Below, one piece after another: positions 28,043-32,303 of a stretch of 64,000 bases of DNA. Source of the stretch: Escherichia phage JEP8; sequence record MT764208.1, one strand, 5' to 3'. Numbering within the stretch: position 1 is the first letter of the stretch; every line of letters begins with the position of its first letter. The notes under the pieces are model-generated. The model had not been told where the DNA came from and made no database searches. It saw only the letters and a program-made list of their open reading frames with translations. The position numbers and the translations under genes were made by a program.

Positions 28043-28335
28043 TAATTAATCTCCAAAAATCCAGCAAGACCTAAACCGATATAAACCCAGATACAAAGGA
28101 AAAAGAAGCAAACACCCATAGCAAAGATAAATCCGCGTAGTGTCTTTGGATAACCTACCCAATATTCCCGACCATCTTCTAACCGGATCAGCTTATTTCC
28201 TTGAGAGTCCATATCAATTACAACATGTTTATTTCTGGATTGTAACAGATACTGCTTGACAATCTCAATACCCGCCATAATAACAATAACGAAAATAAAA
28301 GTCCACACAACAAGATTAATGATAGTCTCAAGCAT
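28042..28335 (-). CDS. Membrane protein (two TM segments)
   Basis: 97 aa; hydrophobic N- and C-terminal helices. Confidence 0.5.
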   Translation of the reverse strand: MLETIINLVVWTFIFVIVIMAGIEIVKQYLLQSRNKHVVIDMDSQGNKLIRLEDGREYWVGYPKTLRGFIFAMGVCFFFLCIWVYIGLGLAGFLEIN

Positions 28336-28570
28336 TTTCTATCACCTCCACCCAATCAGGTGTTTCCTGAAAGACTCCTTCGCCTTCATGATGGTCGCAA
28401 CCTTTATTGCTGCAATACATCCACCAATCCCACATTCCCCACGGTAAACGATGCATATCGTCGTTACAGCAAGTGAAGATGATAGGCCAACCACATCTAC
28501 CACAACGGCAGTTTTCCTTCATGTGAGCGGTATTAGGCTTCTTCATAGATGACTCCAATATAATCGACAT
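28328..28570 (-). CDS. Cys-rich small protein
   Basis: 80 aa; CRCGRCG...CCNDD...CSNKGCDHHEG. Confidence 0.4.
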   Translation of the reverse strand: MSIILESSMKKPNTAHMKENCRCGRCGWPIIFTCCNDDMHRLPWGMWDWWMYCSNKGCDHHEGEGVFQETPDWVEVIENA

Positions 28571-30155: not shown

Positions 30156-30240
30156 TAATTTCTCCTGTTTGGCTTAACTTTCTGATTTCATAATATAGCC
30201 CTATCACCAGAAAGTCAAGCATTAACTCAACCAATTTCCA

Positions 30241-30663
30241 TTATTGGTCTACCTTCAAAACAACCGCCGACATTTTACCCGCCAGTCGTTTTGGATTCTC
30301 TATAATCATTCGGCAGCATAGACCGTGATATGGCTTACCCTCTTCGATTAGATCTACTGTCATCCCGATCCACATGTTACCGTCAGTAATTTCTAATCGA
30401 TTAGGTCGGTCTTCCATTTTCAGGAAGTCGAAGATCTCCGGCAAACGAGTTTCTATCTTATTGAATAGTTCCATTGTCTTATGTTCATCGATATGACGAT
30501 CGGTTAGACGGTCGATCATATGCGGACTAAAGCGAATGAAAATATACTCGCCGTAACCATCATTCAAGCACTTTTCTTTGATCTGCGCATTGGTTTTGCG
30601 CATTTCGGTTTCGAAGAATCTACGCAGCTTACTACGGCGAACATGTACGTTAATTGTTTCCAT
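30241..30663 (-). CDS. Hypothetical protein
   Basis: Start moved to METINVHVRR after SD AAGGA. Confidence 0.45.
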   Translation of the reverse strand: METINVHVRRSKLRRFFETEMRKTNAQIKEKCLNDGYGEYIFIRFSPHMIDRLTDRHIDEHKTMELFNKIETRLPEIFDFLKMEDRPNRLEITDGNMWIGMTVDLIEEGKPYHGLCCRMIIENPKRLAGKMSAVVLKVDQ

Positions 30664-30667
30664 TTTA

Positions 30668-31003
30668 TTATCCTTTCTTAAACAAATTGCGAAGCCAGTA
30701 TACAAACGGGATTTCTTTAAACTTGAACTTGTCAATAGTTAATTCTTTAGTAGCAAGATGAATACCATAAGCATCATGTGTAACTATATGCCATTTTCTA
30801 TAGTCCAAATGTGAACAACCGTCTGGATCTAGGTTAATAAGAGTTTCTCGCTCACTAGGATTATTTTTCCACAATTTTGTAATAGGATCGCACATAATTC
30901 GACCTAGCGTACCATGAATAATCTCACAACGGTAAAGTTTTCCAGCAGTGAGATAGGCGCACCCGTCATAGTCGGTATAAACAAACACTTCTTTAACACT
31001 CAT
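30668..31003 (-). CDS. Small paralog 3 (C[SA]HL motif family)
   Basis: Start moved to MSVKEVFVYTDYDG after SD AAGGAG; DGCSHLDYRKWHIV. Confidence 0.45.
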   Translation of the reverse strand: MSVKEVFVYTDYDGCAYLTAGKLYRCEIIHGTLGRIMCDPITKLWKNNPSERETLINLDPDGCSHLDYRKWHIVTHDAYGIHLATKELTIDKFKFKEIPFVYWLRNLFKKG

Positions 31004-31031
31004 TTTAATACTCCTTTGTTTCGATGGGGGT

Positions 31032-31060
31032 ATATTACTACCCCCGATCATGTGTGTCAA
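31032..31060 (-). promoter_or_regulatory. PeSL-like early promoter
   Basis: Minus strand TTGACA cacatgatcgggggtag TAATAT; gggggta..taccccc hairpin. Confidence 0.5.
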
Positions 31061-31306
31061 CTACTTTTTCAAGATTTTTTTGATCACATTCCAAAGACCT
31101 TTATTCTCAGGTTGTTTTGGTTCTTCGATCAGTGTCCATGTTCGACCGTCTAAGTGTGCACAATTTTTAAGACAAATAAAAATCTGGTGTCCCTTATCAT
31201 CACGGATATAACCACTATTCGCAAATCTTTCATGTGGTGTATATTCATACAGTGTATTTGGTGTAATATACTTGCGGTTACTATAAGGTGTCATCACATA
31301 CATCAT
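31061..31306 (-). CDS. Small paralog 2 (C[SA]HL motif family)
   Basis: Start moved to MMYVMTPYSN after SD GGGAG; CAHLDGRTWTLI. Confidence 0.45.
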   Translation of the reverse strand: MMYVMTPYSNRKYITPNTLYEYTPHERFANSGYIRDDKGHQIFICLKNCAHLDGRTWTLIEEPKQPENKGLWNVIKKILKK

Positions 31307-31497
31307 GGTACTAACTCCCATTTATCACCGCGAAGATGAGAACATCCACCATCAAGAAGGATCGTAATACGAAACCCCGCATCATCTTCAATATACCCGA
31401 TAGTCGGTGGATGTTCGTCGTCTCGTGCCGGGGTAAAATCATACATCTTCCCCGGTGTGATATCATTGCCTTTATTGCTATTGGTATAAACTTGCAT
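31303..31497 (-). CDS. Small paralog 1 (C[SA]HL motif family)
   Basis: 64 aa; GGCSHLRGDKWELV. Confidence 0.45.
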   Translation of the reverse strand: MQVYTNSNKGNDITPGKMYDFTPARDDEHPPTIGYIEDDAGFRITILLDGGCSHLRGDKWELVP

Positions 31498-31518
31498 TTT
31501 CTTAATCTCCTATATTAA

Positions 31519-32217
31519 CTAACCACGGGTATAGTGTTCCAGAACAACTGTCAGATGAATATATTCTAATAGATCTTTCCAAAAGTCAACATCTGGTTCT
31601 TCCGGCATACCGTTTTTCTTTGCCTCTTCACGAGCGAGTTTAACACGCTCGTAGAGATCTTTCAATTCTTCCCGCACATTATCAAAGGTTCTTTCTCCTA
31701 ACTTACACGCTAAAATCGAAGAACGTCTCGCGAGCGGGAATTGTATATCACCTGTCTGATAGATTTCAAGTAGCTGATAACCAACACGCAGAGCATGAGA
31801 AAGATCTTTCCAGTTACTGAAATACTTTTCAGATTTGGCTACCTGTTTCTTGAGATAACCAGACAAACCCCACATACCAACATGATAGAATTTATCGCGA
31901 TGTGTTCGGATGTATTCCCATTCTCTGGAGGATTCAACCAACATGTTACTAGGCGCGTGCACCATGTCAATAGCACCGATATCGCCTTTACATGCCAGAT
32001 TGATAAACCGTTTTAGACTGAACATATTAACGTCAATATCGTCTTTGGTGTTCTTGATACCTTGACCGCTAGTGCTTTGGTCATAGTGTTCTTTCATCGA
32101 TCCTAAGATAATTTCTTTCGCAGTCGGAACAAAGATACCACGATAATCTTTATCGGAATTTTCAGTATCAAGGCCGTATAAGTGAGACCCGAAGACCATT
32201 TTAACCATTGTATGCAT
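31519..32217 (-). CDS. Predicted nucleotidyltransferase (Pol-beta-like fold)
   Basis: 232 aa; N-terminal VFGSHLYGLDTENSDKDYRGIF fits the G[GS]x9-13 D-x-[DE] signature; SD GAGGG. Confidence 0.55.
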   Translation of the reverse strand: MHTMVKMVFGSHLYGLDTENSDKDYRGIFVPTAKEIILGSMKEHYDQSTSGQGIKNTKDDIDVNMFSLKRFINLACKGDIGAIDMVHAPSNMLVESSREWEYIRTHRDKFYHVGMWGLSGYLKKQVAKSEKYFSNWKDLSHALRVGYQLLEIYQTGDIQFPLARRSSILACKLGERTFDNVREELKDLYERVKLAREEAKKNGMPEEPDVDFWKDLLEYIHLTVVLEHYTRG

Positions 32218-32303
32218 AATTAAACCCTCAGTTGATTAAGAGATTGCATCATACCATCATAAAAATAAAAAGCCAACCCTTTTCGGATTGGCTTGATGAA
32301 AAA

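Follow-up and report, generated by a model that had tools for sequence, protein, structure and literature searches.

NrdC.11, a RlaP-family nucleotidyltransferase, beside a triplet of small predicted SH3-like proteins in a Krischvirus genome

Genes and expression signals between vs.6 and regB

The DNA analysed here, a 64-kb stretch that we call the window, belongs to the Krischvirus lineage (RB49/Phi1/GEC-3S-like) of RB49-like T4-type coliphages. Between positions 30668 and 32217 its minus strand encodes four proteins of 232, 64, 81 and 111 aa, exactly where the initial annotation had located them (Table 1). The largest is the product of nrdC.11 and the three small ones, here paralogs 1 to 3, are encoded by the genes that follow it; next comes regB, a neighbour outside the small-paralog family that starts 4 nt past the stop codon of paralog 3. 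Two of the small genes could be read from other starts: one at 31321 would extend paralog 2 to 86 aa, and the longest mechanical ORF at paralog 3, opening with TTG, has 130 aa.

Table 1 Features of the nrdC.11 region, with positions in the window
Feature	Position	Strand	Evidence
Terminator-like hairpin and T-run after vs.6	32270..32294	-	10-bp stem, 5 GC pairs
Sigma-70-like promoter candidate TTGGCT-17-TATGAT with TG, upstream of nrdC.11	32248..32276	-	Consensus scan
nrdC.11, RlaP-family Pol-beta nucleotidyltransferase, 232 aa	31519..32217	-	Pfam, PHROG, BLASTP, annotation
Small paralog 1, 64 aa, acidic, pI 4.6, bare SH3-like beta-barrel (predicted)	31303..31497	-	
Small paralog 2, 81 aa, predicted SH3-like core and tail	31061..31306	-	PHROG 15978, E 3.5e-60
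Early-type promoter TTGACA-17-TAATAT between paralogs 2 and 3	31032..31060	-	Consensus match
Inverted repeat GATCGGGGG...CCCCCATC enclosing the -10 hexamer	31022..31050	-	RNA fold
Small paralog 3, 111 aa	30668..31003	-	PHROG 6261, E 1.1e-37; dN/dS 0.15
regB endoribonuclease	30241..30663	-	Pfam REGB_T4, E 2e-48, and annotation

A 21-nt spacer separates nrdC.11 from paralog 1, and the ATG of paralog 2 overlaps the TGA of paralog 1 (ATGA), a tight packing of nrdC.11 and the first two paralogs that is compatible with their co-regulation. GGAG Shine-Dalgarno sequences lie at 31507-31510 for paralog 1, at 31315-31318 for paralog 2 (9-12 nt upstream of its ATG) and at 31011-31014, as part of AAGGAG, for paralog 3. 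The Shine-Dalgarno sequence of regB is GGAU, as noted for RB49 (PMC3014915). Upstream, the hairpin after vs.6, at a position where a terminator is annotated in GEC-3S and G2494, marks the boundary of the nrdC.11 transcription unit. The promoter candidate preceding nrdC.11 is graded weak and relatives carry no promoter annotation at the equivalent position; GEC-3S has a promoter with -35/-10 signals annotated at the equivalent of the early-type one between paralogs 2 and 3. The segment 31000-31075, which covers the inverted repeat around the -10 hexamer of the latter, is predicted to fold at -18.1 kcal/mol (z -2.5).

Across seven Krischvirus genomes, dN/dS amounts to 0.03 for nrdC.11 and to 0.25, 0.22 and 0.15 for the 64-, 81- and 111-aa genes, so that all four are under purifying selection. 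In the same genomes dS is 0.22-0.31 at paralogs 1 and 2 but 0.07-0.11 in the genes on either side; this increase, combined with purifying selection, points to allele exchange, which is typical of accessory genes. PADLOC defence-system models gave no relevant match.

NrdC.11 as a member of the RlaP family

In Pfam the 232-aa protein falls into RlaP (PF10127; E 2.2e-14, 54.2 bits for a gathering cutoff of 23), its residues 7-191 aligning with model positions 24-198 of 249; in PHROGs it matches PHROG 388, 'nucleotidyltransferase' (E 1.7e-79). BLASTP aligns it over the full length of T4 NrdC.11, apart from a gap of 104 aa (E 2e-50), the T4 protein also matches PF10127, and the annotations of RB49, Phi1 and JSE name the gene nrdC.11. 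By sequence it is therefore an ortholog of T4 nrdC.11 and a member of the RlaP family. The nucleotidyltransferase signature GS...D-x-D reported in the initial annotation is present (FGSHLYGLDTENSDKDY) and can be read straight from the sequence as F-G10-S11...S-D22-K-D24; further downstream, AIDMVH aligns with ALDMLH of T4 NrdC.11, and its Asp is probably the third metal ligand. The same annotation described the activity as unknown, which is outdated: the Pseudomonas enzymes PfRlaP and PaRlaP add 1-2 NMP to RNA 3'-OH ends in vitro, and T4 NrdC.11 has been assigned to their family (PMC12776372). No solved structure for NrdC.11 was found when sought by sequence.

The two phage proteins differ by an insertion of ~104 aa in T4 NrdC.11 (T4 residues ~130-240), which the 232-aa protein lacks, its length being close to that of the canonical PF10127 model. 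We considered whether fusion with a copy of the small domain could account for this insertion and rejected the idea, as the small-family profile has no match in that T4 region. The genomic settings differ too, since nrdC.11 lies between vs.6 and regB here and between mobD and nrdC.10 in T4. Although the name RlaP comes from an association with RNA ligase, Krischvirus nrdC.11 does not adjoin an RNA ligase gene: a phmmer search of the 64-kb window with T4 Rnl1, Rnl2, PseT and other seeds matched nrdC.11 only, and in a Krischvirus genome the PseT homolog is encoded far from it. T4 NrdC.11 likewise lacks an RNA-ligase or RNA-repair neighbourhood, so that such an absence does not exclude RlaP membership.

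By analogy with the bacterial RlaP biochemistry, from which we infer the activity of the phage enzyme, NrdC.11 would extend damaged RNA at its 3'-OH by 1-2 nucleotides in a template-independent manner. tRNAs that have lost a nucleotide to an anticodon nuclease of the host could then be restored by the RNA ligase and the polynucleotide kinase that the phage encodes elsewhere in its genome. The nucleotidyltransferase is Krischvirus NrdC.11 of the RlaP family and needs no new explanation.

A small phage protein family with a predicted SH3-like fold

The paralogy initially proposed for the three small proteins is real. BLASTP relates the 64- and 81-aa proteins to each other with an E value of 3e-12 (40% identity), and the 111-aa protein to the 64-aa (E 6e-5) and 81-aa (E 2e-3) ones. 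All three match PHROG 6261 and/or PHROG 15978 (E 3.5e-60 to 6e-6), the 64- and 81-aa proteins matching both; these are two families in PHROGs, but our profile searches unite them into one superfamily. A profile built from the three paralogs revealed no fourth copy in the window. The core motif proposed in the initial annotation holds in part: its C-[SA]-H-L-x4-W half is common to all three proteins, but the full pattern, applied as a regular expression, matches none of them, because the 64- and 81-aa proteins carry [IV]-x-D-D-x-G instead of D-x-G and the 111-aa protein lacks the D-D-x-G half.

Profile searches extended the family to ~331 clusters at 50% identity (representatives with E<=1e-3), mostly of 58-70 aa and seen only in phage and metagenome sequences; two family peptide patterns run over 185,579 bacterial and archaeal species genomes yielded no confirmed relative. 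Pfam has no model for the core, and literature searches retrieved no function, fold or distribution for PHROG 6261/15978, nor anything on the RB49 locus tags, protein accessions or PHROG identifiers. The family motifs are T-x-G-K-x-Y, D-D-x-G and C-x-H-L...W, and the small proteins match the family significantly by profile; in the alignment Y19 and W60 are invariant and T14, K17, I36, D39 and H54 are conserved in at least 90% of the sequences. The domain is generally acidic, with a median net charge of -5 and a median pI of 4.75 over 228 family domains. The core is acidic in 84% of the members, paralog 1 included. Duplication is recurrent: two family genes occur in each of L006, L021 and Bas09, tandem gene pairs in W011D and Bas11, and two or three family domains within a single chain in P0022, P0024 and P0027. 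Fusion partners comprise DUF3850 (once), a Tad2-like match below the Pfam cutoff (once) and regions without Pfam match, and are uninformative on function.

Structure prediction suggests that these proteins are small SH3-like beta-barrels, usually acidic. The predicted barrel has five strands, the conserved D-D-x-G turn forming a distal hairpin and a 3-10 helix preceding the final strand, and the model combines these features with the structural similarity to SH3 domains that characterises an SH3-like fold. In the AlphaFold2 model of paralog 3, pLDDT is 83-94 for most of the core, ~61 in a loop inserted into it and ~50 in the tail, a 35-aa C-terminal extension that ends in a predicted basic amphipathic helix. 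Paralog 2 also has a basic amphipathic C-terminal tail by charge analysis (PKQPENKGLWNVIKKILKK), and both paralogs 2 and 3 have a basic net charge whereas paralog 1 is acidic. A Foldseek search of the PDB gave nothing below E 0.69, the Pfam SH3, KOW and Tudor models found no sequence match in the small proteins, and no solved structure for the family was retrieved by sequence or PDB profile search. The T-x-G-K-x-Y, C-x-H-L and W elements distinguish the family from canonical SH3, KOW, Tudor and SH3b domains.

Two candidate relationships were rejected. Gp54 of phage Bas11 (PDB 9AXB) is a small SH3-like beta-barrel that directly triggers the defence protein CapRel(SJ46); the barrel is described as six-stranded and of a different topology (PMC11578894). 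It resembles the small paralogs in size (66 aa), as a non-essential small phage protein of unassigned function, and in a local C-x-H...W stretch; however, hhalign gave a probability of 4.8%, the score against the family HMM was 1.4 bits, Gp54 was not found in the PDB profile search with the family at E<=10, and Bas11 carries true family members apart from it (bas11_0078 and bas11_0079). The VOC/FosA-glyoxalase resemblance reached 13-19 bits in NCBIfam against cutoffs of 180-305, the overlap being a ~20-residue L-D-P-D-G hairpin of the 111-aa protein, and the glyoxalase matches in Foldseek spanned 29 columns at E 0.7.

A lineage-specific neighbourhood and the possible role of the small proteins

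The initial annotation correctly recognised a Pol-beta-type nucleotidyltransferase followed by three tandem paralogs, and from this order proposed a functional module of an enzyme and its small partners. Comparative evidence does not support the latter, as the adjacency is confined to Krischvirus. Of the phage records, 1,723 contain an NrdC.11/RlaP homolog, and tblastn with the family consensus detects the small family in 155; both are found together in 58, all Krischvirus, leaving 1,665 RlaP-bearing records without a family member by this search. An RlaP gene lies beside the small family in none of 20 non-Krischvirus lineages that carry it. The nucleotidyltransferase belongs to a known family whose distribution is unrelated to that of its small neighbours, which is in effect the outcome that the initial annotation named as refuting its proposal. 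Among T4-like phages, consensus tblastn finds the small family in Krischvirus only, and profile scans of 42-68 kb and 105-154 kb of T4 found none. In T4, nrdC.11 is ~6 kb away from the regB-vs.6 slot, which holds Vs.3-Vs.5; we rejected these as homologs of the small paralogs since, despite the shared slot, they have no profile match and look helical. No conserved neighbour of any kind was found around family members, the adjacent genes varying among terminase, Lar, HNH, dUTPase, helicase/PD-(D/E)XK, exonuclease and CsrA-like ones. The proximity of nrdC.11 and the paralogs looks like lineage-specific gene shuffling, with no conserved partnership. It also illustrates that, where the early regions of T4-like phages vary, neighbouring genes are weak grounds for assuming a functional module.

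On balance, we lean towards reading the locus as two separate things side by side in a variable early region of the genome, the RlaP-type NrdC.11 and an early accessory SH3-like triplet. On this reading the 64-, 81- and 111-aa genes go back to one gene, tripled in tandem, whose product is a predicted SH3-like beta-barrel of ~60 residues, and they are transcribed early, paralogs 1 and 2 probably together with nrdC.11 and translationally coupled, paralog 3 from its own early promoter and coupled to regB. The GGAG Shine-Dalgarno sequence, a RegB target motif, precedes all three, which are thus probably shut off after the early period. Most likely, the paralogs are accessory host-takeover or anti-defence factors, not enzymes. 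They would act stoichiometrically, with the SH3-like surface as the binding site for a protein of the host or of the phage, and the basic amphipathic C-terminal helix gained by two of the copies could provide a second contact. Such a protein-binding accessory role is suggested by the small size, the acidic core, the recurrent duplication, the variable C-terminal additions and the setting among small early genes, the mechanism itself being conjectured from predicted fold, charge and context; the net basic charge of paralogs 2 and 3 leaves room for nucleic acid or membrane binding by these two.

An explanation that we consider unlikely broadens the initially proposed module to RNA repair: the SH3-like proteins would be accessory subunits of phage RNA-repair enzymes (RlaP, polynucleotide kinase-phosphatase, RNA ligase), recognising damaged tRNA ends or a host ribotoxin and guiding or regulating the enzymes. 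Some loci give a weak hint of this. The three small genes lie directly downstream of RlaP in Krischvirus; in L011 a family member lies directly upstream of genes for a PHA02142-OB-domain protein, a putative RNA ligase, and a kinase plus HAD_PNKP protein; in Bas09 one of the two members overlaps the start of a HAD_PNKP phosphatase gene; in L014 the gene next to a family member is CsrA-like and a HAD_SAK_2 gene lies at a distance of 1.9 kb, and repair genes occur within 2-3 kb of family members in L014 and other Drexlerviridae. The fusion partner DUF3850, an ASCH-like and possibly RNA-binding domain, fits as well. A directly adjacent repair gene is seen in 3 of ~21 lineages (Krischvirus counted) where ~0.5 would be expected, with a Poisson P of ~0.01-0.1 that varies with the assumed background rate, the expectation being rough. 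However, RlaP itself is adjacent in none of the 20 lineages examined beyond Krischvirus, nearly all RlaP-bearing records show no family member by consensus tblastn, and no RNA-repair gene was detected in the DNA examined from 16 of the 20 lineages, a coverage that is uneven (+-8 kb with precomputed Pfam/phmmer seeds in some, near neighbours or short contigs in others). The repair-gene seeds came partly from the loci that first showed the association, which introduces ascertainment bias, both gene classes reside in early accessory regions, which raises the odds of chance proximity, and the strong acidity of typical members argues against direct RNA binding. We are decidedly doubtful of the broader proposal that the family is an accessory part of phage RNA-repair/anti-ribotoxin systems, whose members would work alongside RlaP, PNKP or RNA ligase and bind either the anticodon nuclease of the host or the complex of enzyme and damaged tRNA; if true, it would explain the direct adjacency to three types of repair enzymes in three unrelated lineages (Krischvirus, contig L011 and Bas09).

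Nor do we give much credence to the idea that the paralogs bind nucleic acid as KOW-, Tudor- or Sm-like beta-barrels and act on mRNA or DNA independently of NrdC.11, modulating, for example, RegB or S1 cleavage or the fate of early transcripts. The translational coupling of paralog 3 to regB and the GGAG sequences on all three genes would suit this role, as would the net basic charge and Lys-rich C-terminal helices of paralogs 2 and 3 and the nucleases or helicases that are frequent neighbours in other phages; yet the predominantly acidic core, shared by paralog 1, speaks against it, no Pfam nucleic-acid-binding family was matched, and T4 and most regB-bearing phages have no detected family member. 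That the three small genes are duplicates in decay, or spurious ORFs devoid of function, is hardly credible and effectively refuted. They are short, have no functional annotation and differ between close relatives (identity is 86-100% for paralog 1, and for paralog 2 it falls to 80% at the nucleotide level in one contig), but the reading frames are intact, with the dN/dS of 0.15-0.25 across the seven Krischvirus sequences, full-length tblastn matches exist in 58 of 58 Krischvirus records, the Shine-Dalgarno sequences are good, the models are confidently folded and the same motifs are kept in hundreds of distant homologs.

The useful outcome concerns the three small genes, which belong to a sizeable phage and metagenome family with neither a Pfam model nor a described function. 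Duplication has occurred in it repeatedly, giving tandem genes in some cases and several domains in tandem within one chain in others, and the family is present in widely used model phages, namely those of the RB49 group and, among the T1-like BASEL phages, Bas09 and Bas11. Comparable small proteins made early by phages have often proved to inhibit or trigger host defences, and these defence-related precedents make the family worth studying by gene deletion and pull-down.

The nrdC.11 enzyme and its surroundings

Between positions 30200 and 32800 the window is 97-98% identical to Phi1, RB49, GEC-3S and about 55 other genomes of Krischvirus, a T4-like genus of the Straboviridae. In RB49 and GEC-3S the minus-strand order is vs.6, nrdC.11 ("nucleotidyltransferase"), three hypothetical proteins, regB and vs.1, so that the genes considered here are annotated genes of a well-known phage group. 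The four minus-strand ORFs of the initial annotation were confirmed from the sequence, as was the G-S...D-x-D signature of the 232-aa protein (present as FGSHLYGLDTENSDKDY); the protein matches Pfam RlaP (PF10127; 54 bits, cutoff 23).

Genes of the locus
Gene	Product	Coordinates	Strand	Remarks
vs.6	138 aa	32304-32720	minus	C-terminal region matches glycyl-radical domain (Pfam Gly_radical, E 1.5e-16)
nrdC.11	232 aa	31519-32217	minus	ORF as initially placed
paralog 1	64 aa	31303-31497	minus	ORF as initially placed
paralog 2	81 aa	31061-31306	minus	ATGA overlap with preceding stop; GGAG 9-12 nt upstream of start
paralog 3	111 aa	30668-31003	minus	ORF as initially placed

T4 NrdC.11 aligns over the full length of the 232-aa protein (E 2e-50), apart from about 104 extra residues in the middle of the T4 sequence. 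The Krischvirus protein matches the Pfam RlaP model continuously (residues 7-191 on model positions 24-198), whereas the T4 match ends at model position 142; therefore T4 carries an insertion and the Krischvirus protein is of canonical length. This insertion (about residues 130-240; T4 locus L008, 13436-14446) is absent from both the Krischvirus ortholog and the Pfam model. NrdC.11 from most other T4-like phages aligns in two pieces and, judging by sequence, a T4-type insertion appears to be common among them. According to a December 2025 preprint that also assigns T4 NrdC.11 to this family (PMC12776372), two RlaP enzymes from Pseudomonas extend RNA 3'-OH ends by one or two NMP, with a preference for damaged RNA. 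Earlier comparative work had led to the prediction that RlaP puts back, before ligation, nucleotides removed by ribotoxins such as RloC (PMC7824862). This biochemistry and this prediction offer a good working answer for the activity left unassigned in the initial annotation: the 232-aa protein would carry out RlaP-type nucleotide addition at RNA 3' ends. The enzyme itself is already known, not new. No RNA ligase or polynucleotide kinase gene was found in the 64-kb window; a PseT homolog sits elsewhere in a Krischvirus genome, and RNA-repair genes are likewise scattered in T4.

The neighbouring vs.6 encodes a GrcA-like glycyl-radical protein, which looks like a phage-borne spare part for an oxygen-damaged glycyl-radical enzyme. 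In phage JSE (L041, 237-767), a homing endonuclease gene absent from the window and RB49 is inserted between vs.6 and nrdC.11, so this junction is plastic. Elsewhere in the window, a Cys/His/Trp-rich 80-aa ORF (28328-28570, minus strand; CRCGRCGW...CCNDD...CSNKGCDHH) downstream of the tk.4 macro-domain gene may encode a small zinc-binding protein, and GC skew turns from negative to positive near 44 kb (about 44000), presumably through a change of predominant coding strand.

A duplicating family of small phage proteins

The three small genes had been read as paralogs, and their alignment bears this out: pairwise BLASTP is significant (E 3e-12, 6e-5 and 2e-3) and all three products match PHROG 6261 and/or 15978 (function unassigned). 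A profile built from them revealed no further copy in the 64 kb. The core motif initially proposed matches none of the three as written, and only its C-[SA]-H-L-x4-W part is common to all; [IV]-x-D-D-x-G occurs in the 64- and 81-aa proteins, and the 111-aa protein lacks that half.

Word-indexed searches with the three proteins recovered almost only Krischvirus copies and one distant 65-aa relative, but when 1.84 billion representative proteins were scanned in full with HMMER, 331 matched at E<=1e-3, mostly stand-alone proteins of 58-70 aa. The rough family consensus is MKVKTDYEGCEYITAGKVYEV...GYITDDEGDEILILLKGCAHLDGGAWEVVE; Y19 and W60 are present in all of 45 aligned sequences, and conservation of T14, K17, I36, D39 and H54 is 90% or higher. 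Read by eye, the retrieved sequences show Tyr, Phe or Trp in place of the family His in several members, and Ser in place of the Cys in one or more, substitutions that speak against a strict dyad for catalysis or metal binding. Pfam scans found no model for the family core. As a rule this core is acidic (median net charge -5, pI 4.75; 228 domains); those of paralogs 2 and 3 are near-neutral, with Lys-rich, amphipathic C-terminal tails, and the predicted structure of paralog 3 shows the shared core, a loop inserted into it, and a low-confidence tail with a helix at its end. Among characterised proteins the nearest structural neighbour is Gp54 of phage Bas11, a direct trigger of the CapRel defence protein (PMC11578894); the likeness is at fold level only, and Gp54 was rejected as a homolog (hhalign probability 4.8%).

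Consensus tblastn detected members in 155 isolated phage genomes. They belong to Krischvirus, to ~136-kb Vibrio phages, to T1-like Drexlerviridae infecting E. coli, Shigella and Klebsiella, to Pseudomonas Flaumdravirus (KIL1-like) and to one phage of Maribacter. No relative turned up when 185,579 species genomes of bacteria and archaea were scanned by pattern, a test that limits the family to phage and metagenome sequences. It duplicates repeatedly, with two genes each in phage Bas09 and two other loci (L006, L021), a tandem pair in phages W011D and Bas11, and two or three domains per chain in three database proteins (P0022, P0024, P0027). Across seven Krischvirus sequences, all genes of the locus are under purifying selection (dN/dS 0.03 for nrdC.11, 0.25, 0.22 and 0.15 for the three paralogs, 0.06 for regB), and synonymous divergence of paralogs 1 and 2 is two- to four-fold above that of their flanks, which points to an exchange of divergent alleles at this spot.

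In T1-like Bas11 (L043, 47025-47653) and W011D (L017, 4977-5923), a member of ~64-70 aa is immediately followed by a 145-245-aa protein that has another, more diverged copy of the domain at its N-terminus. The metagenomic protein P0006 (ENA contig, 83 aa) resembles paralog 1 in its N-terminal half and paralog 2 in its C-terminal half and basic tail; it looks like a hybrid of the two, the expected product of unequal crossing-over between tandem copies.

Genomic contexts of enzyme and small family

The enzyme and its small neighbours had been proposed to form a functional module, an idea that comparison does not sustain: such a module is not conserved. NrdC.11/RlaP homologs occur in 1,723 phage records and the small family, by consensus tblastn, in only 155; every one of the 58 records that have both is a Krischvirus. 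In 20 independent non-Krischvirus contexts, surveyed through precomputed Pfam labels and record annotation, with phmmer seeds and by scanning neighbours directly against Pfam, no RlaP gene adjoins a member (0/20), the nearest candidate being an NTase-like ORF with no Pfam match, 6.6 kb off on the other strand (locus L029). The adjacency is therefore Krischvirus-specific, and gene turnover is known for the region in which it sits. T4 has its nrdC.11 about 6 kb away from regB, with mobD and nrdC.10 on either side, and its regB-vs.6 slot holds Vs.3, Vs.4 and Vs.5, which proved unrelated to the small family.

No recurrent neighbour emerged across the 20 contexts, where members stand near terminase, Lar, HNH, dUTPase, an SF1 helicase with PD-(D/E)XK nuclease, an exonuclease, a CsrA-like protein and many small unknowns. 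That the family is nevertheless linked to RNA-repair genes is a lead, not support, and we regard it as improbable. One member lies directly upstream of genes for a PHA02142-OB-domain protein and a kinase plus HAD_PNKP protein (L011, 8001-10618), one of the two in Bas09 overlaps the start of a HAD_PNKP phosphatase gene (L010, 656-1451), and another stands beside the CsrA-like gene, 1.9 kb from a HAD_SAK_2 gene (L014, 808-3313); 2-3 kb separate the member from the phosphatase gene in other Drexlerviridae. Direct RNA-repair neighbours thus occur in 3 of about 21 lineages, Krischvirus counted, against roughly 0.5 expected, but this sample is small, the early-region background rate is an assumed one, and detection was partly seeded from the loci in which the pattern was first seen.

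Expression and likely role

A terminator, annotated in relatives too, lies 3' of vs.6. Genes nrdC.11 and paralogs 1 and 2 form a tight unit (a 21-nt spacer, then an ATGA overlap), and paralog 3, preceded by an early-type promoter (TTGACA-17-TAATAT, annotated in GEC-3S), ends 4 nt before the regB start. The -10 hexamer of this promoter is enclosed by a GC-rich inverted repeat (GATCGGGGG...CCCCCATC; 31022-31050, minus strand; -18.1 kcal/mol as RNA, z -2.5), which could occlude the promoter or serve in termination or processing of read-through transcripts. GGAG, the RegB cleavage motif, is present in the Shine-Dalgarno of all three small genes (31011-31014, 31315-31318 and 31507-31510, minus strand). 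The regB gene, unlike them, has GGAU, as published for RB49 regB (PMC3014915). We infer that the small genes are probably expressed early and then silenced by RegB through these GGAG sites. Across the window GGAG is depleted (210 versus 273 +/- 14 in shuffles, all of which had at least 210).

The most economical reading of the small proteins is that they would be accessory factors that serve host takeover or anti-defence by binding to a protein of the host or of the phage. It is based on their acidic beta-barrel of ~60 residues with no catalytic signature, on repeated duplication and the exchange of alleles, on C-terminal additions that vary, and on a location among small early genes. The observation behind the initial annotation is real, and consists of a known enzyme and an uncharacterised but catalogued small phage protein family. 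What is modestly new is the placement of the three genes in a broad, repeatedly duplicating SH3-like family that was encountered here in phage and metagenome sequences alone and whose weak link to RNA-repair neighbourhoods deserves attention.
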